A DNA stretch of 64,000 nt from Escherichia coli (GTDB lineage Bacteria > Pseudomonadota > Gammaproteobacteria > Enterobacterales > Enterobacteriaceae): the NCBI RefSeq assembly GCF_003334305.1, contig NZ_QOWS01000018.1, one strand, 5' to 3'. Below are positions 24,894-37,416 of this stretch, in pieces. A program made the position numbers and the translations under genes. Position 1 is the first letter of the stretch, and every line of letters begins with the position of its first letter. The notes below the pieces were generated by a model that did no database searches, was not told where the DNA came from, and saw only the letters and a list, made by a program, of their open reading frames with translations.

Positions 24894-25499
24894 TTAGCCG
24901 TTAAGTTTAACTGCCAGACCTGCGACATATTCCCCTTGATAACGAGCAATAGACAGTTCTTCCTGGCTTGGCTGGCGTGAGCCGTCACCGCCTGCGATGG
25001 TTGTTGCGCCGTACGGCGTACCGCCGCGAACCTGTGAAACGTCAAATAATTCCTGCGCTGCGTAGCCAATGGGGACAATTACCATGCCGTGATGCGCAAG
25101 GGTCGTCCAGGTTGAAGTAATAGTTTGTTCCTGACCGCCGCCAGTACCGGTGGAACTAAAGACGCTCGCCAGTTTTCCGTATAGTGCGCCGGAAGCCCAC
25201 AGGCCGCCCGTCTGGTCGAGGAAGGTACGCATTTGACCGGACATGTTGCCAAAGCGGGTAGGTGTACCAAAAATAATGGCGTCGTAATCGGCCAGTTCTT
25301 GCGGGGTTGCAACCGGTGCAGTTTGCGTTTTACCGCCTGCTTTTTCAAATAATTGCGGCGGCATGGTTTCCGGTACACGCTTAACGACAACTTCTGCGCC
25401 ATCCACTTTGCTTGCACCCTCAGCGACTGCGCGTGCCATCGTTTCAATATGTCCGTACATGGAATAATAAAGCACTAGTATTCTTGCCTTAACACTCAT
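24894..25499 (-). CDS. wrbA: NAD(P)H:quinone oxidoreductase WrbA with an element-encoded N-terminus ([12 protein letters not shown] in place of the recalled K-12 MAKVLVLYY)
   Basis: 201-aa flavodoxin-like ORF; the first codons and the RBS (aggaga) lie in the inserted element, the rest is host wrbA. Confidence 0.9.
25469..25475. other. attL core candidate (AAAGCAC), left copy of the junction direct repeat
   Basis: Host wrbA sequence ends and element sequence begins right after this heptamer. Confidence 0.55.
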
Positions 25500-25550
25500 A
25501 TCATTGTTCTCCTGTTCAATGAACCACTTAGATAAGCATAGTCCGAAGAT

Positions 25551-27194
25551 ATGAAGCTGCTAGTGACATACATCAGGTGGAGTACTAAAGAGCAAGACTC
25601 AGGAGACTCCTTAAGACGACAAACAAACCTCATTGATGCTTTCTACTCTAAGCACAAAAACGATTATTACCTTCTTCCTGCTCACAGATACGTTGATAAG
25701 GGTAAATCTGGTTTTCACCAGCAACATAAGAATCAAGGTTCTGACTTCAGACGTATGTTTGAAAATGTTATGTCTGGGGCTATTCCAGAAGGTTCCCTGA
25801 TTGTTGTAGAGAACTTTGACCGCTTCAGTAGGGCTGATATCGACACAGCTATAGATGATGTCAGGCAGATACTGAGGAAGGGAGTCTCTATACTGACTCT
25901 GGGAGATGGTGAACTCTACGACAAGTCAGCATTAACAGACCCTGTGAAGCTGATTAAGCACATCATCATAGCTGAGCGAGCACATCAGGAATCTCTTGTT
26001 AAACAAAAGCGTATAGCTCAGGTCTGGAACCATAAAACACAGCTTGCAAGAGAACTTAAGAAGCCTATGGGTAAGCAAGCCCCCGGATGGTTAGAGCTAT
26101 CAGAAGACGGTTCACACTACATCGTTGATGAAGATAAAGCGTCACTGGTGAATATCATCTATGACAAGCGTCTTTCTGGTATGTCGATGTTTGCTATCTG
26201 CAAATGGCTAAACGAACAAGGTTACCCGACCATTAATCAGCGTAAGGTCAGAATATCCAAGACTAAGAAACCGGATGGTAACTGGTCAGCTTTAAGCGTT
26301 AAACACATCCTGACTTCACGAAGTGTATTAGGTTACCTTCCCGCTAAGATTTCTACAGAAGACCGTAAAACAGTGTTACGTGAAGAAATTGAAGGGTTCT
26401 ATCCTCAGATTGTCACAGATTCTAAGTTTTACGCTGTACAGCAACTGTTAGAGGAAACAGGGAAGGGGAAAACATCCAGCGGTGACCACTGGTTATACGT
26501 GAACATACTGAAGGGGCTTATCCGTTGTAAGTGTGGGCTTGTAATGACTCCTACAGGGATACGTAAACCCGTTTATCAAGGTACTTACCGTTGCAATGGT
26601 AATAAGGAGTCCCGTTGTAGCTACGGTACAGTGTCCAGAAAGTTACTTGATACACAGCTTTGTAGTCGTCTGTTTAGCAAACTGTCACAGCTACACGATG
26701 AAGCTACCGATACAGCTAAATTAGATGAACTACAAAGAAGATTAAACACCGTTGATGGTGAACTGGAAAAACTCACTGAGACGCTGATACAGCTTCCTAA
26801 CATCACTCAGATTCAAGAAGCACTACGGGTTAAACAGGAAGAAAAAGATGAACTGATAGTTCAGTTATCACGAGAAAAGGCGAGGGTAAAATCTGTATCA
26901 AGCTTGGATTTAAGCGGTCTTGATATGGAGTCTGTAGAGGGGAGAACTGAAGCCCAGATTATCATTAAGCGTCTGGTGAAAGAGATTGTTGTTTCTGGTA
27001 ATGAAAAGCTGGTGGATATATATCTTCACAATGGAAATATGATTCGTGGTTTCCCTCTTGATGGTAAAGATGACCACACCTTAACGCTTGAAGAAGCAAC
27101 CGATGAGATGCAGTCACTAGATGATATGCTTATTTTTGGTGAACCAGTAACAAGGATTTATCCTGCTGGTGATATGGAAGAGGTGGACGCTTAG
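25551..27194 (+). CDS. Large serine recombinase (integrase candidate)
   Basis: 547 aa; N-terminal resolvase-type catalytic motif YIRWSTKEQ (catalytic Ser), Cys-rich zinc-ribbon region (CKCG...CNGNKESRC) and coiled-coil segment typical of large serine recombinases; gene abuts the junction. Confidence 0.85.
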
Positions 27195-27979
27195 TATTTT
27201 TTATTAGGGTTCACTGAGTACTTTTTAAGCTTTGAAGCTACTCGACCAGCGTTACTATTAGCATTGGTGACGTTGGTTTTTTCAGCTTCTGTTAAGTCTG
27301 AATAGTCCAGCTTCCAAGCCTTATTACACTTAATCTGAGCATCGAGAATATCATTTCTGATAGCTGGAGCGTAACCGGATACATCGCTAATACTCATTAG
27401 CTCTTTGCACGATAGCATAGGCGCGTTATTGCGTTCAGTGGTCACGTTACCTGCATTCTTCTTACTGGTCACACCACCATCATTCGTAGTCGCGGCTTTT
27501 CCAGTTGCAGCCGAGATATCAGTCTGCCCCACAACAGCTTTGAAGTTAATTTCCTGAAAAGTTAGTTGGATTCTTAATCCGTTTGAAATTCCAACATCTT
27601 TAGAGGCTTTAAAACTTGTGATAATGGAATCATCAATTTTAATTCCGTCTTTACAGATGACAGAAATAATCTGCTTCTGGTCACGCCAGTTTTCCAGAGT
27701 GTCAATGAAGTTCTCTACTAATTGACCCTGACGAGTTAATAGTAAGCTTCCTTCATAACCAACTACAACGACACCACTGATAGTGATTGTTCTGGGTGCT
27801 CTTTGAACATTATCTGTGACGGTTTGCCCTGATTGCATGTTCTGTGTAGTCACCTGCATAGGGCTATCAAATTCCATATTTTCAGTTGCTGATAAGGTTA
27901 AGAAGGCATCTACATTATCTCTTAAGTGGAAGTAAACGCCATCTTTGCCACTGTAGCGGATTTGATTGCTAAAAATCAT
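27191..27979 (-). CDS. Hypothetical protein, possibly distal-tail (Dit)-like phage tail component
   Basis: Follows the tape-measure-like gene in the canonical order; start taken at the second Met (MIFSNQ), which has an AAGGAG RBS; homology not verified. Confidence 0.35.
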
Positions 27980-28059
27980 TAAATTCTCCTTTGATTTCAA
28001 AGGCTTAGTGTATTTTAATCATTTTTAACCAAGCCTTTGATATATAAGTATTTTCTCTG

Positions 28060-28128
28060 TTAAGCGTGAGCTACGTAAATTCTATTTTTCAGTGCGGGTA
28101 TTAACTTTGCTTTATTCACGTAGAACAC
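28060..28128. repeat. Direct repeat copy A (69 bp, internal dyad GCTACGT...ACGTAGC) upstream of the Dit-like gene
   Basis: ttaagcgtgagctacgtaaattctatttttcagtgcgggtattaac... about 88 percent identical to copy B. Confidence 0.75.
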
Positions 28129-28135
28129 CGTTAAA

Positions 28136-30304
28136 TCAATCATCTTCTGGGAATGATGAACTTAATAACGTAGCTTCTGCATATTGGTCGTAGATATTAC
28201 TGCTAAAGGTCATAAAGCTGGTTTCATCTGGTTTAATGGCAACTTCACCACCAAGTGAAACTTTCACAGGCTCCTGAATACGCTTACTTAAAGCAGAGAT
28301 TTCATCCCTCAGACCCTGAATATCTGCACTCGTTAATGCTGAATCTTGCTTAATGTTGTTTAATTCTGGATGATTGAATCTTGCAATATTCATTGTGGCA
28401 TTGTTAAACAATTCACCCATTGAACTAAAAATTCTACTCCATCCTTCGTTAATCACATTCGGTTTATTAGGGTCACCAGAATACACAGGATTAAAGTCAC
28501 TACCCACACCTACCCCAGATGGATGCATATTAGCGTTTTTGACTACTTCCTGATTCATAAAATCCAGTGCTTTCTTCAATGCATATAAACCAAGAGTGAC
28601 ACCTCTGATTTGTGGAATCATTGAAGCTAATGCTAACGCTGTTTCATAACCGTCATCAGCATAACCAATTGCAAGAGCACTACCTACACCACCAGCTACA
28701 CCTTTCAGTTTTCCACCACCTTTACCAGTAGCTACCTGACCAGCCACCTGATTAGCTCTTGTACCTAACGTTGTGATTGCTCTTGTCAGGTTCATAACCC
28801 CTGTAGTAGCACTGAATAGTGTCTTTGCAGATAACGCTATAGCAAGACCTTTGACGAAGTTGATAAATCCATCACCGACTTCATCAAGTAGCTTTCGCTT
28901 AGTGTCATCAAGGCTGTAATAGGTCTTCTTAATCTGTAGAATCCAGCCTTCAAGGTGATTGTTAAAGATACGGATGTCATCTACACCAGCTTTAAGCATG
29001 TCGATAAGTCCACCGATAGCATCACCAGCGATAGAAGAACTCATACCCATTTCACTAAGCAGGTTACTCAGGCTGGATAAGAAGCCATTTAGCTCATCCT
29101 GTGAACCTGAGAAGATTTTCACCATCGTATCATCCCAGTTGTTAGCCAGTTTCCCTAAAGCTGTCTGAGTGCTCTTAGCGACTTCAGCCCAGCCACCCGC
29201 TTTATCAATCATCAAGCCCATCTGTTTAGCGACTTTAGGGAGAGTATCACTACTTAAAATCTTCCCGTCTTTCATCGCTTTATCAAGCTCTGTAGCAGTC
29301 ATACCCAGTGCTTCAGCGAATAGCTTAAATGCACCAGCCATACGGTCACCTAACTGACCACGAAGCTCTTCAGCCTGAATCTTGCCCTTGCTCGCCATCT
29401 GCTCAAATGCTTTCAAAATGCCGTTTAGCTCATCGTTAGAAAGCCCCATTAAGCGACTCATAGCCGTTGCATTACCAAATAGCTCCTGTGTCTGTTCCTG
29501 TGACATAGAACCCTGAGCACCTGCTGCAAACTTAGCGTAGCTTGATAGCCCTTCAGAGATATTAAGACCTGTCTTGTCTGCTAAATTTCGAATAAATACC
29601 TCAGCTTCAGATGCTTTATCACCAAGTACAAACTTAGCGGCTCTCTGTGCGGAATCTCGTTTAAGACCTGCATTCATGATGGCCTTGTAAGCGTTAAGAG
29701 CACCCATCACAGAGTAAAATGCACCAGATAACTTGATTGCATTGCTTGCAAGATTATTAAATGCGTCGCTTGTATTGTTAATGCTGGTGGATGTATGACC
29801 TTTAGCTTTAGCAATTGCTTCTCTGACTGAAGCATTTAACTGAGTCAGCTTCTCATTGAATTTTGAAGAATCCATTGACCCAGCTTTAGCAGATAGCCCG
29901 TAAAACTGAGATTTGATGTATTTCTGCAAAATAGGGTCAAAGCCTTTTAGCTTAGACATATTAGCTGAGTAAGCCGCTGTGATTGCTCTGTTGCCGCTAA
30001 TTCGTGGCTGTCTTGGTTGTCTAAGTGGCTTTAAAGTGTCATCAATTTCCGTTTTAATCTTAAACGCTCTAGTGTTTTTAAGACGCTGCTCAATCTTGGA
30101 AACAGTTTTATCGACATTCTTTTCCATTAGTTTGAGAGAATCATTTAAAGGCGTAGGGTTAACTCTGAATGCCTTATTTAGTCGTTTCTCAATTCTTGAT
30201 GCGATTTGCATCGTTTGTTTCTCGGCTTTTTCCAAGCCTTTTAAAACTTTCTGAGAGCTAAAACTTAGCTCAATCAAAAAATCATCAACTTTAAATTGTG
30301 CCAT
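28136..30304 (-). CDS. Tape-measure-like protein (phage tail length tape measure family candidate)
   Basis: 722 aa; coiled-coil N-terminus, central region resembling the tape-measure core (...AEELRGQLGDRMAGAFKLFAEALGMTATELDKAMKDG...), Gly-rich hydrophobic segments. Confidence 0.55.
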   Translation of the reverse strand: MAQFKVDDFLIELSFSSQKVLKGLEKAEKQTMQIASRIEKRLNKAFRVNPTPLNDSLKLMEKNVDKTVSKIEQRLKNTRAFKIKTEIDDTLKPLRQPRQPRISGNRAITAAYSANMSKLKGFDPILQKYIKSQFYGLSAKAGSMDSSKFNEKLTQLNASVREAIAKAKGHTSTSINNTSDAFNNLASNAIKLSGAFYSVMGALNAYKAIMNAGLKRDSAQRAAKFVLGDKASEAEVFIRNLADKTGLNISEGLSSYAKFAAGAQGSMSQEQTQELFGNATAMSRLMGLSNDELNGILKAFEQMASKGKIQAEELRGQLGDRMAGAFKLFAEALGMTATELDKAMKDGKILSSDTLPKVAKQMGLMIDKAGGWAEVAKSTQTALGKLANNWDDTMVKIFSGSQDELNGFLSSLSNLLSEMGMSSSIAGDAIGGLIDMLKAGVDDIRIFNNHLEGWILQIKKTYYSLDDTKRKLLDEVGDGFINFVKGLAIALSAKTLFSATTGVMNLTRAITTLGTRANQVAGQVATGKGGGKLKGVAGGVGSALAIGYADDGYETALALASMIPQIRGVTLGLYALKKALDFMNQEVVKNANMHPSGVGVGSDFNPVYSGDPNKPNVINEGWSRIFSSMGELFNNATMNIARFNHPELNNIKQDSALTSADIQGLRDEISALSKRIQEPVKVSLGGEVAIKPDETSFMTFSSNIYDQYAEATLLSSSFPEDD

Positions 30305-30322
30305 TGTTCATATTTCACCTCT

Positions 30323-30390
30323 TTAAGCGTGAGCTACGTAAATTCTATTTTTCAGTGTGGGTATTAGCTTTACAGATTTCACGTAGCACA
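30323..30390. repeat. Direct repeat copy B upstream of the tape-measure-like gene
   Basis: ttaagcgtgagctacgtaaattctatttttcagtgtgggtattagc...cacgtagcacac. Confidence 0.75.
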
Positions 30391-30505
30391 CATAGGATTC
30401 GATAGAAGACTATCTCATATACAAAAAAGGAGAGTTACCGATGTCACTCGATAATCTCTCCCGTAGATTTTTACCCAACCAATTCTATTAGAAGCTAATC
30501 TCAAA

Positions 30506-30721
30506 TTAATGGTAAACGTAAGAATACATCCCATCATCACCTAAAATCTGTGCGTCACATGGTAATTTATCTAAGCACCATGAAGGAATCTTACGTACCT
30601 TTGGTTTATGTGAGGTGATAACTTGATGCTGATTTTTAATTCGTAGCTTTGGTTTAGTCTGAAGCTTTAAGTTCTCACAAACAGACTTAATAAGTTCATA
30701 GCGTTCTGTTAAATCAATCAT
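30506..30721 (-). CDS. Hypothetical small basic protein
   Basis: 71-aa ORF co-oriented with neighbouring element genes; no recognisable motif. Confidence 0.4.
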   Translation of the reverse strand: MIDLTERYELIKSVCENLKLQTKPKLRIKNQHQVITSHKPKVRKIPSWCLDKLPCDAQILGDDGMYSYVYH

Positions 30722-30744
30722 TCACCACCTCTTTTAATTCATAG

Positions 30745-31455
30745 TTAAAGTGCCTTGCTATATTTCTGAGAAATCTTCACTAACTGCTCAATATCAGCCT
30801 GCATAGCAATCTTCTTCTGCGTTTCATATGCAGAAATAAGCTCTTTCATAGCCTGAAGCTCTCTTGAGAGATACAACTTAACATTTTCAAGTTGCTTGTT
30901 ACGTGATGCCAAGATGTTCTGTCTGGCAAGTTCAGCGAGTTCTTCATCGCTCTTATTAGTCGTGTAAATAAACTGACCAGCACCCCTTGAAGCTTTAACC
31001 ATCTTCACAATTCGATATCCAGCAGGAAGACTACTAATCACGGCTGCGACGTTTTCTTGAAAAGTACCAAAACCATCATTGTCTTCGTATGTGAAGTAAA
31101 CATACGGCTTCTGTGACAATTCATCCTGAATCTCAAATTCTGACGGCTCAATAGCTGATTGCATCAGGGTAACTTTACTGTAAGCATCATCTAGTTTAAT
31201 ACGCTGTGCTTTTAGCAGTGGGTAATATTCACGCTCAAGCTCAAGTAATGCTTCAGTTTTGCATACATCAGGCATCTCTTGAGGCTCAGGAGACACAAAG
31301 ATGATTTCCTTTGGTGACATTCGGATTTCTTGCTCAAGCTTAATTCTTTCATCGTGTTCTTTACGCTGAATAGCGATAGCTGGATGTTCAGTCTGTGGCG
31401 ACCAGTCACCGAAGCTATCAATCACTTTGCCATTAATGTAAATATCATTTGTCAT
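30745..31455 (-). CDS. Hypothetical protein with C-terminal coiled coil
   Basis: 236-aa ORF with a good RBS (aagagga); no recognisable domain. Confidence 0.5.
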   Translation of the reverse strand: MTNDIYINGKVIDSFGDWSPQTEHPAIAIQRKEHDERIKLEQEIRMSPKEIIFVSPEPQEMPDVCKTEALLELEREYYPLLKAQRIKLDDAYSKVTLMQSAIEPSEFEIQDELSQKPYVYFTYEDNDGFGTFQENVAAVISSLPAGYRIVKMVKASRGAGQFIYTTNKSDEELAELARQNILASRNKQLENVKLYLSRELQAMKELISAYETQKKIAMQADIEQLVKISQKYSKAL

Positions 31456-31933
31456 TGTTTTTTCCTCTTCTAAGCTAAAGTATTTCAGTTTTTAAAAAGC
31501 ACACCTGACAGCCTATCTAAACTTAGAAGAGACTTAAAAGGCGGTTTGCCAAGTATGCTTTTTAAAAGCTGAAAAAGCCCTAGATAACTAAAACGCTATA
31601 AAGGGCTAAGGTGAAGAAATTAAAACATCTAAAGGATTCAATAACGAATGAACAAAGACTTTTCGAGATAGCCTCTCAGGTTGTATAAGAGGCCATGTAG
31701 CGAAAAGCATTGCACCTTTCAGAATGTTCGGTATAGAACATACCTCACCAACTCAGAATATCCATCCATCGGATTATTGAAATAAATAAGAGAGAAATTC
31801 TCTCTATAATTAAAATTATGTCATGCTTAAGGTTATTTGTCAACAGCTTTTTAACAGATTGGTAACATTTATACTTTAATAGATGCACCTGCAATCATAC
31901 CAATCAACACAAAACAGAGAATCACCAATTCCA

Positions 31934-32257
31934 TTAATGCACCACCTTCGAATCCGTAACCAGAATATTATCGCTGTACAAAATTGCTATAGCCGCCTTG
32001 AGATATTTTTCAGGGCTAACGCTGTATTTGTTCGTTTGCTCGACAACCAATCTTTTCATGTTGCTGTCTTTAATTGGTAGCATCATTCGAGGCTCGTTAA
32101 ACTCCACCGACTGAATAAAGTCAGAGATGCTTTCCGCATTATCAGTCATTAACTCTAACAACTTATCAAAGTCAATGCTAACACCTACATCAGTGAAAGC
32201 CTGAATCATCATGGCGGTGTCGGTATCAATAAAAATCTGTAATTCGTAATTGTTCAT
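31934..32257 (-). CDS. Hypothetical acidic protein
   Basis: Start taken at the ATG (MNNYELQIF) preceded by AAGGAG; the track ORF begins at an upstream TTG. Confidence 0.45.
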   Translation of the reverse strand: MNNYELQIFIDTDTAMMIQAFTDVGVSIDFDKLLELMTDNAESISDFIQSVEFNEPRMMLPIKDSNMKRLVVEQTNKYSVSPEKYLKAAIAILYSDNILVTDSKVVH

Positions 32258-32412
32258 TTTTAAAATCTCCTTTTTACCAGACCTCCTCAATCGCTCTGTA
32301 ACGAGCTAAACAGTCTTTTTCAGGGGTAGCCTGTACAGTGGTATTACCCACCCTAAAATAAGATAGTTTTTTGCGTCAGAATGCGATTGAGAGCGTCTGA
32401 GAAGCTGTTTTT

Positions 32413-32700
32413 CTAATTTCTCTTAAAGTCTCGGACTTGCATAAGATTTTTTGGTCTGGTATCGGCTCTGTTACCATTTCGATGGATAATTTGCTTGTTG
32501 GATTGATAGCCATGATAAAGAAACCAGACAACATATTTCACGTAGAAAGTATATCGGCCTATATTAAATGTTTTGTTGCCGTAGTCGTCGGTGTTTATCG
32601 TGACTGACTCTCCATCAGACCAGCACAGGGAATCACTGGATTCATCATAGATAAGGTGTTCTGCAAAATATCTTCTAACATCTTCATTCCAAGGTTTCAT
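32413..32700 (-). CDS. HNH endonuclease-like protein
   Basis: 95 aa; C-terminal IIHRNGNRADTRPKNL resembles the HNH core (I-H-x-N/D-G-N-x-x-D-N-R-x-x-N-L) of phage HNH nucleases. Confidence 0.5.
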   Translation of the reverse strand: MKPWNEDVRRYFAEHLIYDESSDSLCWSDGESVTINTDDYGNKTFNIGRYTFYVKYVVWFLYHGYQSNKQIIHRNGNRADTRPKNLMQVRDFKRN

Positions 32701-32912
32701 AAAACCTCCTCACCCCAATAACCTAATTCAATCTTGTGACGCTCAAACCATTCCGGTTTAACTGCTGTTTTCAGTACTTCATTTGGGCCAATGGCTTTAA
32801 TGAAAATATCTTTTGAGTTATGGATGTCACCGAATCCGTTTCCTTCAATCAGGAGGTCGGAGATGTAGCGAATCATTTTATCCGTGTGGTATTCAAAGGT
32901 AACGCATAGCAT
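32697..32912 (-). CDS. Hypothetical protein
   Basis: 71-aa ORF with start/stop overlap to both neighbours (operon-like coupling). Confidence 0.4.
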   Translation of the reverse strand: MLCVTFEYHTDKMIRYISDLLIEGNGFGDIHNSKDIFIKAIGPNEVLKTAVKPEWFERHKIELGYWGEEVL

Positions 32913-33193
32913 TAAACCTCCAGAGACAGCTTGTGAATCTTAAGACTCAATAGACGGGCAATATCAATTTTAAAGCCGTTAAGTCCCTTCAAAGTATCTA
33001 AAGCGTCCTGAGTAATTCGGATGTGTTTACGACCTTTAGAGACTGGATATTTAAGTAAATCCGACTCAGTAACCTCTTTAGCAATTGCAAGCTGCATAAC
33101 AGTCTGATGAGGTAAGTTAGTAGCTCGTTTAATTCTGGCAAGCTCGTTAAAAGCTTCCTCTGAAATGCGGGTTAAAGTGTGTTTGTTTTTCAT
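32912..33193 (-). CDS. Putative ribbon-helix-helix DNA-binding protein
   Basis: N-terminal HTLTRISEEAFNELARIKRATNL pattern (beta-strand then helix) typical of Arc/MetJ/CopG-type regulators. Confidence 0.4.
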   Translation of the reverse strand: MKNKHTLTRISEEAFNELARIKRATNLPHQTVMQLAIAKEVTESDLLKYPVSKGRKHIRITQDALDTLKGLNGFKIDIARLLSLKIHKLSLEV

Positions 33194-33194
33194 T

Positions 33195-33749
33195 TTAAAA
33201 TTCCTCTGTAACTAAATACGGGTCAAATTCAAAGTCTGGTTCACTGGTTGTAAGGCTGATATTTCCAACTTCCGCATGATGATTAATTGTCTCAATAACT
33301 TTCATGCAAATAGTGGCTAAGTTAGCGCAATATTTATCACTTGGTAATTCGTAGCTAAGTCTGGTTGCTTGTCTTTGAAGATGGCTCGTCACTGTGCTTG
33401 AACTAATCTCATCAAGACTTCGCAGTAAATAAAAAACCTTCCGGTGATAATTATCTCTTCCAAGACTGCGACAAGTACCGATAATTACATCTTCAATTCG
33501 TGGCGGTAATTGCTCGTAAGAATCAAAGCCCATCAAGAAAGTTTTTAAAGTATTCTCTTTTTCTTTGCGTGCTGGCATAAATCTGTCTCGTGGCGTAATG
33601 CTACGAATGACCGCTTCAATGTTCTTACGTTCGGATTTGCTAAAGGTTGGGACTTCGTAGCTGGTGGGGGTGTCTGTGTGGCTGTAACCGTTGTGTCTGT
33701 TGCGTTCTCTTGATGCCTGAAGCATCGCTCTAAATTCTCTGTCGTTCAT
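33195..33749 (-). CDS. Hypothetical protein (first gene of the leftward operon)
   Basis: 184-aa ORF with no recognisable domain. Confidence 0.45.
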   Translation of the reverse strand: MNDREFRAMLQASRERNRHNGYSHTDTPTSYEVPTFSKSERKNIEAVIRSITPRDRFMPARKEKENTLKTFLMGFDSYEQLPPRIEDVIIGTCRSLGRDNYHRKVFYLLRSLDEISSSTVTSHLQRQATRLSYELPSDKYCANLATICMKVIETINHHAEVGNISLTTSEPDFEFDPYLVTEEF

Positions 33750-33850
33750 TCATAAGCTAGTCCTTATAATTGTTAATTCTCTGTTAACTTATATATACAA
33801 TACTAGCATTTTCAAAGACTAATGTCAAGCATTTTTTAACATTTCATTAA

Positions 33851-33866
33851 CATCTGTGGTATAATG
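33851..33866 (+). promoter_or_regulatory. Candidate extended -10 promoter (TGgTATAAT), rightward
   Basis: ctgTGgTATAATgg in the divergent region between the 184-aa gene and the small membrane ORF. Confidence 0.45.
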
Positions 33867-33992
33867 GTTCTATGGGGAGAGTAAAATATAAAGGCGTGGC
33901 TATGAGGTTTATTCGATAGGGGTTGGTACAAGCCCAACCAACCGAATCAACTATGTATGTCACATGGTATTGCATTGCACACAGGAAATTTA

Positions 33993-34169
33993 ATGGTAAA
34001 TCTCCCTCCTGAACTGGGGTCACCTGATGTATGGGCTGGTGGAGGTATCGGGCTGATTGCAGGTCTGTTACTCCGCTACGTCCTTGTCAGAGTGCTTGTT
34101 GTGTTCCGATTGTTCGGTCGTACATGGACGCTTGACCTTAAGGATAATGAGCACACAGAACCCCGTTAA
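33993..34169 (+). CDS. Small single-pass membrane protein (58 aa from the RBS-preceded ATG)
   Basis: Hydrophobic stretch GGGIGLIAGLLLRYVLVRVLVVF; AGGAAA RBS before the MVNLPPEL start. Confidence 0.35.
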   Translation: MVNLPPELGSPDVWAGGGIGLIAGLLLRYVLVRVLVVFRLFGRTWTLDLKDNEHTEPR

Positions 34170-34211
34170 GCTCCCTTCAAATCCCCCTGTACGAGATGGC
34201 ATAGGGGTGTC

Positions 34212-34250
34212 TTTAGCATTTTGTGCTATCTATTAAAAAATAACTTGACA
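34212..34250. promoter_or_regulatory. Operator-like dyad TAGCA-N5-TGCTA followed by ACTTGACA (module 1)
   Basis: tttagcattttgtgcta ... acttgacagaa. Confidence 0.45.
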
Positions 34251-34289
34251 GAACCGGAAAGCTGTATCTATCAGGTATTCACCTCTCTG

Positions 34290-34460
34290 ACAGTAACTTC
34301 TAAAAGTTCTTATTTTTCAATGAGTTGTAATCACCCATATATAGAGAACTGACAAGTCTCTTCACAATTAACTCTGTAACCTTAACAGTGATTTCTAAAA
34401 ATGCTTATTTTTCAATAAGTTGTAATTAGCCATATATAGAGAACTGACAAGTCTCTTCAC
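34290..34460. repeat. Two tandem copies of a 76-bp direct repeat (period 95 bp) in ORF-free DNA
   Basis: acagtaacttctaaaagttcttatttttcaatgagttgtaatcacccatatatagagaactgacaagtctcttcac versus the second copy, about 88 percent identical. Confidence 0.8.
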
Positions 34461-34777
34461 GGAGAACTTCCTGGACTCACTAAGATACAAGGCGATAACC
34501 CCAGAAAGGGAGAGCCACCTTCTAATTGGTATTGTTATGAGGATGCTTCATCCGAATCATCTACCAATCCCTAAACCGACTTCTTAAACAATCTTTACAG
34601 ACCCCGTTCACCAGTCTCAATATTTTTATTTCTCGCTCTTCGTTTGTTGCTCGTTTCTATTATTGAGGGGGTTTGAAAAACCTCTGTAAAATAACCCTTC
34701 CAGTAAAAAGCGAATAACCCCAGAGAGGGGGAATCGCCTCTTTAACATTCTCATAATCAGTGCTCTATATGAGAATT

Positions 34778-35446
34778 TCAGCCCAACCTTTGAACAATCT
34801 TGTAAGTGGTGCTTAGAGGCATTCTTAGCGATTCTGCGATGCTCTTGACGGATTGCCCTTGGCCATGCAGTTTAATCAGCCTGTCAAGCGTCTGTGCATC
34901 GTGTATATGAGGTCTTCCACGTAAACCACCCCTGTTAACCACGGCAAGTAAAAGCATTGTGTCGCCACAATAGATTGTTTGTGTAACTTCAACCTTCGGT
35001 TTACGGGGTGTGTTCCTGTATATCAAAACGCAACTTGCAAACGGTGAACGCACTACAACACCTTTCTTCCCTGCTGGTGGAAGGTATTTGACTGCTCGGT
35101 GTAACGTTCGAATCTCATGCAGAAAGGGGTTTGTATATACACACCGAAGCCAGTAAGTTGTCTTTGACCTGTGCGGAACCAGACATACACACACATCAGC
35201 TTCATGGGATTTTAGGAGGAACCTTTCAGCCATGCTAAACGGCGGGTTAACGAAGACCCGTTCACCAACCCATGATTGATTGTGAATATCATCGGTGAAC
35301 CGTGGCAACAATGCGTCATGCTCAGTTGCAGCACCATCCATCGAAAAACCAAATTCACGGTGTAGGTTACGAAATAAACGATACGGTGTACGCCAGTCAT
35401 CAGAACCACCATGATAACGACCGACATTGATTATTGGATGTGACAC
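34778..35446 (-). CDS. Dam-family (phage-type) DNA N6-adenine methyltransferase with a C-terminal HTH extension; GTG start
   Basis: N-terminal DWRTP and catalytic NPPF motifs of the phage Dam family; C-terminal about 45 aa (GRPHIHDAQTLDRLIKLHGQGQSVKSIAESLRMPLSTTYKIVQRLG) resemble the GRP-linker plus HTH of resolvase/invertase proteins. Confidence 0.7.
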   Translation of the reverse strand: MSHPIINVGRYHGGSDDWRTPYRLFRNLHREFGFSMDGAATEHDALLPRFTDDIHNQSWVGERVFVNPPFSMAERFLLKSHEADVCVCLVPHRSKTTYWLRCVYTNPFLHEIRTLHRAVKYLPPAGKKGVVVRSPFASCVLIYRNTPRKPKVEVTQTIYCGDTMLLLAVVNRGGLRGRPHIHDAQTLDRLIKLHGQGQSVKSIAESLRMPLSTTYKIVQRLG

Positions 35447-35485
35447 AAGCGAAGCGCCCCTCTTAGTATATTTCTTAATCGTCTC

Positions 35486-35546
35486 TTTAGCATTTAGTGC
35501 TTTTTGTTAAGTTTAGCACTTTTTGCTAAAGACAAAACACTTGACA
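35486..35546. promoter_or_regulatory. Operator-like dyads (TTTAGCA-N6-TGCTAAA and a second half-degenerate copy) followed by ACTTGACA (module 2), upstream of the methyltransferase gene
   Basis: tttagcatttagtgct and tttagcactttttgctaaa, then acttgacaaaa. Confidence 0.5.
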
Positions 35547-36020
35547 AAATGGTAAGATTGTTCACATGACCTTACTTAACAGATTCTTAAGAGCTTTGAA
35601 ACGAACTGTTTAACAAGGTCACTACCTCTGGTCTTATCGTTCCCTCTCTTCTTGGTAGTTCTGTTAAGTATCTTTTCAGGTATCTCTTACAGTCACTGTT
35701 AAGATAGAACCTACCTTCGGTTTCATGGTTCTCTTCCTCCCGTTAAATATCCCTTCACAGTCAGACTAAATAACACCTCTGTAGTTTCTTGGTAGAATCT
35801 TTCAAGGTAACTTAACTCTGAGTTTATGAAGTTGACCTTAGTCAATGTTTGTGAAGGTGTTACAGAGCATGTTCTCTAGGTCTGTGTAGCTCACTAAGCG
35901 AGAGAGGGGATATGTGACCATAGGGGAACCCCTCCTGTTAAAAGTTTCTTGATGTTATCATCACAATATGTATAATCACCAACTGTACAGACACCTTAAC
36001 GGTTTCTCTACACCTCACTA

Positions 36021-36089
36021 TGGCTAGGTAGGGTATGGTTTAGCTTGGTACGGCTAGGTTAGGTCTGGTTTGGTTAGGTATGGGTGGAT
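36021..36089. repeat. Degenerate G/T-rich short tandem repeat (GGYTAGGT-like units)
   Basis: tggctaggtagggtatggtttagcttggtacggctaggttaggtctggtttggttaggtatgggtgg. Confidence 0.6.
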
Positions 36090-36120
36090 TGTCGTAGCCA
36101 CGTTAAAAATCGACTTATAG

Positions 36121-36145
36121 GGACTCTTTCGGGAGTCCTTTTTAG
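36121..36145 (+). terminator. Intrinsic terminator, plus orientation, with no upstream plus-strand ORF
   Basis: ggactc-tttcgg-gagtcc stem-loop followed by ttttt. Confidence 0.6.
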
Positions 36146-36347
36146 TTTGTATAAAATCTGTACAGGAGTTATCAGGCTTCTAAAATTTTTATAAAAAATA
36201 ATCAGACCTCTTCTAAGCCTCTTCAACCAAATCTTTCGAAAATATCTGACAGATGTCTGTAGCTGCTAAGTACCCGTCACACCAGCTATGTGACCCCCTT
36301 GGCAAAAAAGCCAAATATCAGCTACATCCATGTAACTATTCAGTAAC

Positions 36348-36899
36348 TTATTTAGCAAGTCTGTAATAAGTTGCTCTAGAGATTCCTAACTCTTCCTGAA
36401 TCTGCAACCTCGTCTTACCTTGTGAAATAAGCGTCTGTACAGCCTCTGAAGAAGCCTTTACAGGCCTCCCCATATGTACCCCTTCAGCTTTAGCACGTTC
36501 AATACCAGCCTTTCTACGCTCTGCTATCAAGCTTCTTTCAAGCTGTGCCAACGTTGACATAATGCCTAACATTGCTTCACCCATAGCGCTTGATAAGTCA
36601 AACCCTTCTCTAAGGCTGATAACTGTCACACCTTTAGCCTGTAGCGCTTTAACCGTTGATAACACATCAATTGTGTCACGTCCAAGACGGTCTACAGCTA
36701 CCACAACTACGGTGTCACCTTCTCGTGCATAAGCTAACAAACTACTGAAACCGTTTCTTAAAGAAGCTTTGACAGAACCACTGACAGCTTCATCAGTGAA
36801 CCATTTAGCAATGTTGTACCCTGCCTCTTCAATTTGCATTTGCTGGTTAGTGATGGATTGGTCATCTGTACTCACCCTGCAATATCCAAGTATCGCCAT
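36348..36899 (-). CDS. Small serine recombinase (resolvase/DNA-invertase family)
   Basis: 183 aa; N-terminal catalytic motif GYCRVSTDDQ, resolvase core, C-terminal GRP linker plus HTH. Confidence 0.85.
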   Translation of the reverse strand: MAILGYCRVSTDDQSITNQQMQIEEAGYNIAKWFTDEAVSGSVKASLRNGFSSLLAYAREGDTVVVVAVDRLGRDTIDVLSTVKALQAKGVTVISLREGFDLSSAMGEAMLGIMSTLAQLERSLIAERRKAGIERAKAEGVHMGRPVKASSEAVQTLISQGKTRLQIQEELGISRATYYRLAK

Positions 36900-36912
36900 A
36901 CATCCCCCTTAG

Positions 36913-37040
36913 AAGTCTCAAAAGTTAGTCTCATAAGTTTAGCTGTCTCATAATCCAAAAACAACCTTTTGAGACTACTTGAGGGTGCATTCTACCGTTA
37001 CGTTGAAAGTGTCTCAAAAGGAAGTCCTTTTAAGACTGGT
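36913..37040. promoter_or_regulatory. Iteron-like array of GTCTCAWAAG motifs (at least four direct, two inverted) immediately upstream of the small recombinase gene
   Basis: gtctcaaaag, gtctcataag, gtctcataat, inverted ttttgagact, gtctcaaaag, taagact within about 125 bp. Confidence 0.6.
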
Positions 37041-37416
37041 TATGAAGGAGCTATGAAGATTTTAGGAGGGTAACTATAACCATCACTTTCTAACTTTCAC
37101 GTAGGAAATCGTTAAGTTTCTTGATAGTTACACCATGTGACCAACTATCTATATATCGTTATATAGCCCTGTATATAACACTTTTCTAGGAGTCGAGAGA
37201 GGGACGACTAACACGATACAGTTTACCCTGAAAAGAGACTTCACAGATTCTCTATATATTTCAATAAGTTAGGCTAAAAAGAGACTATACCGATACTGTA
37301 TAGAATCTGTGTAGAATTGCTTAGATACTTGGAAAAATGCCTTTAAATTGAATAGGTACTAACCTGTTTATGTCCTGTTATTAACAGGTAGTTGAATGTA
37401 CGTGTTTAGCTATGTA

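Follow-up and report, generated by a model that had tools for sequence, protein, structure and literature searches.

The window (the whole 64-kb stretch of DNA analysed here) contains a phage-related island in which a rightward open reading frame of 58 codons is very probably a genuine gene, transcribed separately from its own promoter, and the product of this gene is likely to be a membrane protein. The explanation favoured here, to which a probability of roughly 0.35 is assigned, is that this is a core membrane-protein gene of the island and a member of the island regulon, and that its product binds a partner and has a role of the exclusion type. By itself it is an ordinary, well-supported orphan small-protein gene; the island that carries it and the operator-like promoters are more unusual. 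Annotation routinely overlooks the small membrane proteins of mobile elements, as it did this one in most of about 400 carrier genomes, and such proteins often prove to govern the entry of phages, functions of the cell envelope or the life cycles of the elements. A compact, widespread and apparently undescribed island with tail-tip genes has the small gene as the conserved partner of its control region, and knowledge of the role of the peptide would be a direct route into the biology of that island.

The small gene and the island that carries it

The reading frame (Table 1) is preceded by a Shine-Dalgarno sequence that related islands keep 6-9 nt before the ATG despite divergence of the leader (AGGAAAtttaATG versus AGAAGGtacattgaATG). 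The mean pairwise pS is 0.34 and the mean pairwise pN is 0.077 (pN/pS of 0.23, 13 islands), the variable alignment columns are distributed 27/7/38 over the three codon positions, and all indels within the ORF (3, 6, 12 and 15 nt) preserve the frame. The pN/pS ratio, the codon-position pattern, the in-frame indels and the retained Shine-Dalgarno sequence together indicate that the ORF is translated and under purifying selection, and thus the short frame of 58 codons with a ribosome-binding site that was noticed in the preliminary description stands as a gene. A 70-residue form starting at ATG 33957, which appeared in a program-made list of ORFs, was rejected because homologues align only from its Met13, the first residue of the 58-residue form. 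Three islands (L011, L012 and L013) have a 90-nt leader insertion near the equivalent of window position ~33985, which adds an in-frame upstream ATG and leads gene callers to report proteins of 105-120 residues; the extension is not conserved as protein. At the other end of the gene, a short run of C near the last four codons (in relatives of 34155-34169) is the site of frameshifts in about one third of the protein clusters, giving C-terminal extensions of 12-55 residues that are either real variants or assembly errors.

The ORF was matched in 403 of 5,426 complete E. coli genomes, with at least 80% of its length covered in 402 of them, and the adjacent 184-residue protein gene was matched in 368 genomes at the same blastn sensitivity. 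It is present in every related island examined and always beside the same leftward operon, in a position that is constant at three integration sites, in Citrobacter and in E. albertii. Having as many carriers as the adjacent core gene, the small gene is evidently a core gene of the island and not a variable add-on; the patchy presence among related elements that characterises a moron was not found, and conservation in related elements, on which the preliminary description had made its reading depend, is borne out. In most carrier genomes, the PGAP annotation lacks the ORF.

The region around the small gene is identical to the chromosome of E. coli strain A7. In addition to the genes listed in Table 1, the island encodes an HNH endonuclease, a 93-residue protein and several proteins without a family match. 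Similarity to islands integrated elsewhere ends near position 37390. Other E. coli have mosaic variants of the island at wrbA, within yecE (DUF72) or in the interval from tonB to yciI, and the island also occurs in Citrobacter portucalensis, in metagenome assemblies and in E. albertii. Approximately 7% of complete E. coli genomes carry it, and among the scanned contigs of species representatives it was seen only in E. albertii. Capsid, terminase and recognisable replication genes are absent from the island, comparison with phage and plasmid DNA gave no match, and an Rfam scan of the island (E <= 1) returned nothing relevant. A literature search found no description of the island or of the small protein, which is not proof that none exists.

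Table 1. Location of the island, the small gene and associated features in the window
Feature	Position	Strand	Remarks
Phage-related island	~25,500-37,390		~12 kb; inserted between wrbA and ymdF
Large serine recombinase	25551-27194	+	Leftmost of the genes listed
Dit-like "baseplate" protein	27191-27979	-	PF21821 in relatives
Tape-measure protein	28136-30304	-	
Three phased repeat copies	31840-31867		Over the -35 (31843-31838) of a second extended -10 promoter (minus strand)
184-residue protein gene	33195-33749	-	
Mirror TTAACA-N5-TTAACA	33771-33787	-	In leader of leftward operon, inferred ~+6 to +22
Leftward promoter TTGACA-17-TGcTAGTAT	33828-33800	-	Would drive operon headed by the 184-residue protein gene
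Rightward -35 hexamer TTAACA	33836-33841	+	Also first copy of operator-like repeat
Phased TTAACA-N5-TTAACA repeat	33836-33852	+	Spans -35 and spacer; candidate operator
Extended -10 TGgTATAAT	33857-33865	+	18-nt spacer to -35
Inferred 5' leader	33872-33992	+	Start inferred from position of -10
51-nt palindromic insertion	33904-33954	+	CTAT flank on each side
Stem-loop	33921-33926, 33934-33939	+	GGTTGG, loop TACAAGC, CCAACC; inside 51-nt insertion
Shine-Dalgarno AGGA	33983-33986	+	6 nt before ATG
58-residue protein gene	33993-34169	+	ATG 33993, TAA 34167-34169; product MVNLPPELGSPDVWAGGGIGLIAGLLLRYVLVRVLVVFRLFGRTWTLDLKDNEHTEPR
Hydrophobic helix	34035-34106	+	Codons 15-38; small-xxx-small G16/17-G20-G24; R28 and R33 invariant
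Two hairpins after stop	34184-34228	+	CCCCCTG...AGGGG and TAGCA...TGCTA; no U-tract
Stretch left unannotated by PGAP	between 184-residue protein gene and Dam gene		~1 kb
Dam-type methyltransferase	34778-35446	-	
TTAACA-type repeat	35576-35592		Upstream of Dam gene
Small serine recombinase	36348-36899	-	

Divergent promoters, operator-like repeats and the leader

The promoter of the small gene has a TG one base upstream of its -10 hexamer and, judged by its sequence, is an extended -10 sigma-70 promoter close to consensus. The window has just two sites that combine at least 11 of 12 hexamer matches with the TG, versus 0.055 expected from 200 first-order Markov simulations. The promoter is retained in all 17 aligned related islands (TGnTATAAT in 16, TATAGT in one), and the -35 hexamer of the relatives is either TTAACA or GTAACA. 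Back to back with it lies the leftward promoter, which is likewise conserved in relatives; the two divergent -35 hexamers are 7 bp apart and the inferred start sites are ~79 bp apart. Both the extended -10 element and its location in a divergent control region, as the preliminary description had them, are confirmed by these comparisons.

The -35 hexamer and spacer of the rightward promoter are covered by direct copies of TTAACA 11 bp apart, i.e. one helical turn, which form an inverted pair with the mirror repeat of the leftward operon leader (CTGTTAAC, invariant in the alignment of relatives). With one mismatch allowed, TTAACA-N5-TTAACA is found seven times in the window, versus 0.41 expected, and five of the seven copies are in regulatory regions of the island. 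The second extended -10 promoter of Table 1 (TTGACA-17-TGaCATAAT, window 31815-31867, minus strand) is the only other near-consensus promoter of this type in the window; its -35 is overlapped by three TGTTAA-type repeats with 11-bp spacing, and it is located upstream of an operon that includes the genes of a 236-residue protein, the tape-measure protein and the Dit-like protein.

Because the repeat is shared by several promoters of the island, one DNA-binding regulator probably switches them together, and the distribution of the repeats makes it fairly probable that the small gene belongs to the island regulon. Binding of the regulator over the small-gene promoter would occlude the -35 hexamer, and it is this TTAACA-binding regulator of the island that would set the expression of the small gene. 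No Pfam or PDB match was obtained for the 93-residue, 184-residue and 236-residue proteins, considered as candidate regulators; the 184-residue protein, modelled with medium confidence, has no meaningful structural neighbour, and no recognisable repressor gene was found elsewhere in the island. The control region resembles PRM/PR of phage lambda in having divergent sigma-70 promoters with starts ~80 bp apart and operator-like repeats between and over them, but unlike that of lambda, its rightward product is a predicted membrane peptide and not a DNA-binding repressor, and its TTAACA repeats are direct and 11 bp apart.

The leader of the small gene is ~120 nt long here and ~70 nt long in relatives without the palindromic insertion, and it contains two conserved blocks, GCGTGGCTAT (33894-33903) and GTCACATG...TTGCATTGCACACAG (33959-33984). 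The stem-loop that the preliminary description placed in the 5' untranslated region exists in this sequence, within the 51-nt insertion; most aligned relatives lack the insertion, and some have a 30-nt version without the central hairpin. The 51-nt insertion is present in 166-187 of ~403-421 island-bearing genomes (~40-45%), and the insert element also occurs elsewhere in related islands in either orientation, with an insertion polymorphism at the equivalent of window position 36251. Its patchy presence and its other insertion sites indicate that the hairpin is a small mobile palindromic insert and not a conserved element of the leader. Palindromic mini-elements of ~50 nt with the core GGGGTTGGTACAAGCCCAAC are found next to CTAT at several positions of the islands (L015:11442-11496, L007:12603-12639, L006 ~1148 and L025 ~9099). 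The whole leader folds no better than shuffled sequences (z = +0.75). A basal 5-bp stem (33896-33900 with 33959-33963) is always pairable, but was rejected as a structural element because it shows no compensatory change.

No intrinsic terminator was called after the small gene. The second of the two hairpins beyond its stop codon is a copy of a TCTTTAGCA...TGCTA motif that is also found upstream of the Dam gene; TCTTTAGCA-N5-TGCTA is located at 34208-34228 and as an inverted pair at 35484-35501 and 35515-35532. The inverted repeats at 34208 and 35514, next to the small serine recombinase, suggested an invertible segment, but this was rejected, as no inversion was found in ~20 relatives, in which there is instead presence or absence of a Dam cassette (~34690-35528, found in some islands and missing in others). 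Further downstream of the small gene lies a 76-nt direct repeat (34290-34365 and 34385-34460, 95-nt spacing), of which each island has one or two copies. The 76-nt units end in a variable 10-bp dyad (ACTGACAAGT, ACTGTCCAGT, GCTGTTCAGC) followed by a constant TTCAC, and look like protein-binding sites (iterons or operators) rather than RNA.

The predicted membrane protein

Hydropathy analysis and AlphaFold2 both give one long hydrophobic helix, in agreement with the single transmembrane helix originally predicted for the product. The Kyte-Doolittle mean is 2.2-2.3 over 19-21 residues, which qualifies as the hydrophobic segment of a bitopic protein, and AlphaFold2 models one continuous helix from residue 11 to residue 51, with high confidence for residues 21-40 and pLDDT > 90 in the core. 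The unweighted Hessa sum of +1.4 to +1.8 kcal/mol, with two arginines in the hydrophobic stretch, marks insertion as borderline on the biological scale. The N-terminal tail has a net charge of -2, and there are four arginines at positions 28, 33, 39 and 43; such a charge distribution suggests an N-out/C-in topology under the positive-inside rule. The product would thus insert in the inner membrane with its acidic, proline-rich N-terminal tail outside and its arginine-rich segment and C-terminal tail inside.

Both the 13-residue N-terminal tail and the 20-residue C-terminal tail are highly conserved. Among 17 distinct members of the family, invariant residues are found in the N-terminal tail (N3, P5, E7, L8, S10 and W14), on the small-xxx-small face of the helix (G17, G20 and G24), within the hydrophobic stretch (R28 and R33), and in the C-terminal tail (F41, G42, W45, D48, L49, K50, H54 and P57). 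The small protein is 67-97% identical among islands, compared with 37-91% for the tape-measure protein.

The small protein has no match in PHROGs, NCBIfam, PADLOC, Pfam or the sequences of the PDB, and a tblastn search of 50,697 phage genomes with the peptide found none. When 1.84 billion representative proteins were searched with a profile, there were only 16 hits, of which the strong ones all belong to the same island family, and a fold search of viral structures with the helix model returned nothing. By these searches, the small protein is without a homologue outside the island family and cannot be assigned to a described family. The name YhcB/DUF1043, given by one source to one member (P0065), was rejected, as comparison of the 17 members with Pfam gave no match at E <= 0.1.

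Possible functions of the small protein

The near-invariant tails, the GxxxG face, the arginines and a conservation above that of the tape-measure protein argue for specific binding and against unspecific membrane damage, and the product would most likely act by binding specifically to a conserved partner located in or at the membrane. MgrB, SafA and AcrZ of the E. coli chromosome are single-pass proteins of 30-65 residues that bind a larger membrane protein, and their partners are known. The conserved residues in and beside the helix of the small protein fit the same partner-binding mode; unlike the genes of these three proteins, the small gene is specific to the island.

In the role placed first, a tentative reading that draws on analogy, the protein would act at the inner membrane to exclude or gate phage or element DNA entering the cell; a membrane-tethered regulator and then a membrane-damaging effector are ranked close behind. 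The small Sie proteins Sie2009 of lactococcal phages and Ltp of S. thermophilus are encoded in the lysogeny modules of temperate siphophages and are co-expressed with the repressor. The small gene resembles theirs in specifying a short, predicted membrane-anchored product beside the switch of a temperate element, but the hosts and sequences are unrelated, and no recognisable repressor gene is present here. A precedent for exclusion by a small inner-membrane protein with its own promoter is gp15 of phage HK97, which is expressed from the prophage and blocks entry of superinfecting DNA in a tail-dependent manner (PMC3594210). Like the moron that encodes gp15, the small gene has a small product with predicted insertion in the inner membrane, belongs to an element with a tape-measure protein, and has its own sigma-70 promoter outside the structural operon. 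Unlike gp15, the small protein has no YebO-type, Pfam or PHROG match and no sequence relation to gp15 itself; its gene belongs to the core of the island and lies at the control region rather than being added on inside the tail operon, is not followed by a canonical terminator, and has its promoter embedded in operator-like repeats.

Several observations weigh against an exclusion role. The small protein is not homologous to any exclusion protein, and two arginines make its membrane insertion borderline. Variants of the small protein do not track variants of the tape-measure or Dit-like proteins, so that a lock-and-key relationship with the tail proteins of the island itself is not supported; they do not track variants of the 184-residue protein either. 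A phage-dependent element has no obvious gain from excluding phages, and the gene, unlike classical exclusion genes, may be silent at rest if a repressor binds the TTAACA sites.

Alternatively, the small protein could be a membrane-tethered regulator or sensor in the switch of the island, its conserved cytoplasmic tail holding or modulating a regulator of the island or a host membrane complex such as a protease, sensor kinase or transporter, so that membrane events (for example, the injection of phage DNA) are linked to induction of the island. The rightward half of the back-to-back switch, which has a geometry similar to that of lambda PRM/PR, contains only the small gene, this gene is a core gene conserved above the structural genes, with conservation of both tails, and no repressor gene is recognisable elsewhere in the island, all of which would suit such a role; however, the case is purely positional, the protein has no DNA-binding or known interaction motif, and two islands persist although the gene is cut by an IS element in one (L007) and its promoter has been removed in the other (L013). 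Overall, a tethered regulator is unlikely. Slightly less likely again is a membrane-damaging effector, i.e. a peptide of holin-like, depolarising or abortive-infection type that would form oligomers through its glycine face and, once the island is induced, kill or lyse the cell. Its small size, single hydrophobic helix, charged C-terminal tail and GxxxG motif are those of such a peptide, and operator-like repeats over the -35 would permit tight repression of a strong promoter, but the conservation of the tails exceeds what pore formation needs, and any leak would be costly with a good Shine-Dalgarno sequence and a near-consensus promoter. Neither an adjacent endolysin or spanin gene nor a dual-start motif accompanies the gene: it is flanked by the 184-residue protein gene and by repeats of the non-coding kind, lysis genes were not detected anywhere in the island, and the single conserved methionine is that of the 58-residue form, the upstream ATG at 33957 not being conserved.

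A type I toxin-antitoxin toxin, restrained by an antisense RNA together with a structured leader, is improbable. The small protein is similar to Hok, TisB, Ldr and ZorO in its size and single hydrophobic helix, and the leader of 70-120 nt with a hairpin is, like theirs, tens of nucleotides long. Unlike these toxins, the small protein has long conserved hydrophilic tails and is encoded by a single-copy core gene of an island, and no antisense RNA signal was detected: across 15 relatives, the ORF and its surroundings have no conserved opposite-strand promoter, and there is no complementarity or identity to the mRNA of at least 11 nt elsewhere in the island beyond chance-level hits and the TCTTTAGCA motif. 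The leader, moreover, is not unusually stable, its hairpin is an optional insert, and its basal stem is not supported by compensatory change. Least probable of all is that the ORF is incidental and that the transcript or DNA sites matter instead; the lack of PGAP annotation and the richness of the downstream DNA in conserved non-coding repeats could be read in this way, but the selection on the frame, the frame-preserving indels and the retained Shine-Dalgarno sequence contradict it. Of the holin-like, toxin-like and exclusion-like possibilities raised in the preliminary description, the holin (no lysis cassette or dual start) and the type I toxin (no antisense signal) are disfavoured, and the exclusion-like role is tentatively preferred.

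The island as a whole may be a phage-dependent or tail-interference element. A broader and rather doubtful proposal is that it represents an undescribed family of such elements in Escherichia and its relatives, of which the small protein would be the membrane-level control component, acting either as an injection sensor or tether or as an entry-exclusion factor. If this is true, a tether or sensor would make the TTAACA-operated switch respond to the injection of phage DNA at the inner membrane.

Two of the sites occupied by the island, wrbA and yecE, are known integration sites of Stx phages as well. At wrbA, the start codon of the large serine recombinase gene is only 51 nt from that of wrbA on the opposite strand (window 25497-25551); the island has thus displaced the DNA formerly upstream of wrbA, and expression of wrbA may be altered in carriers of the island.
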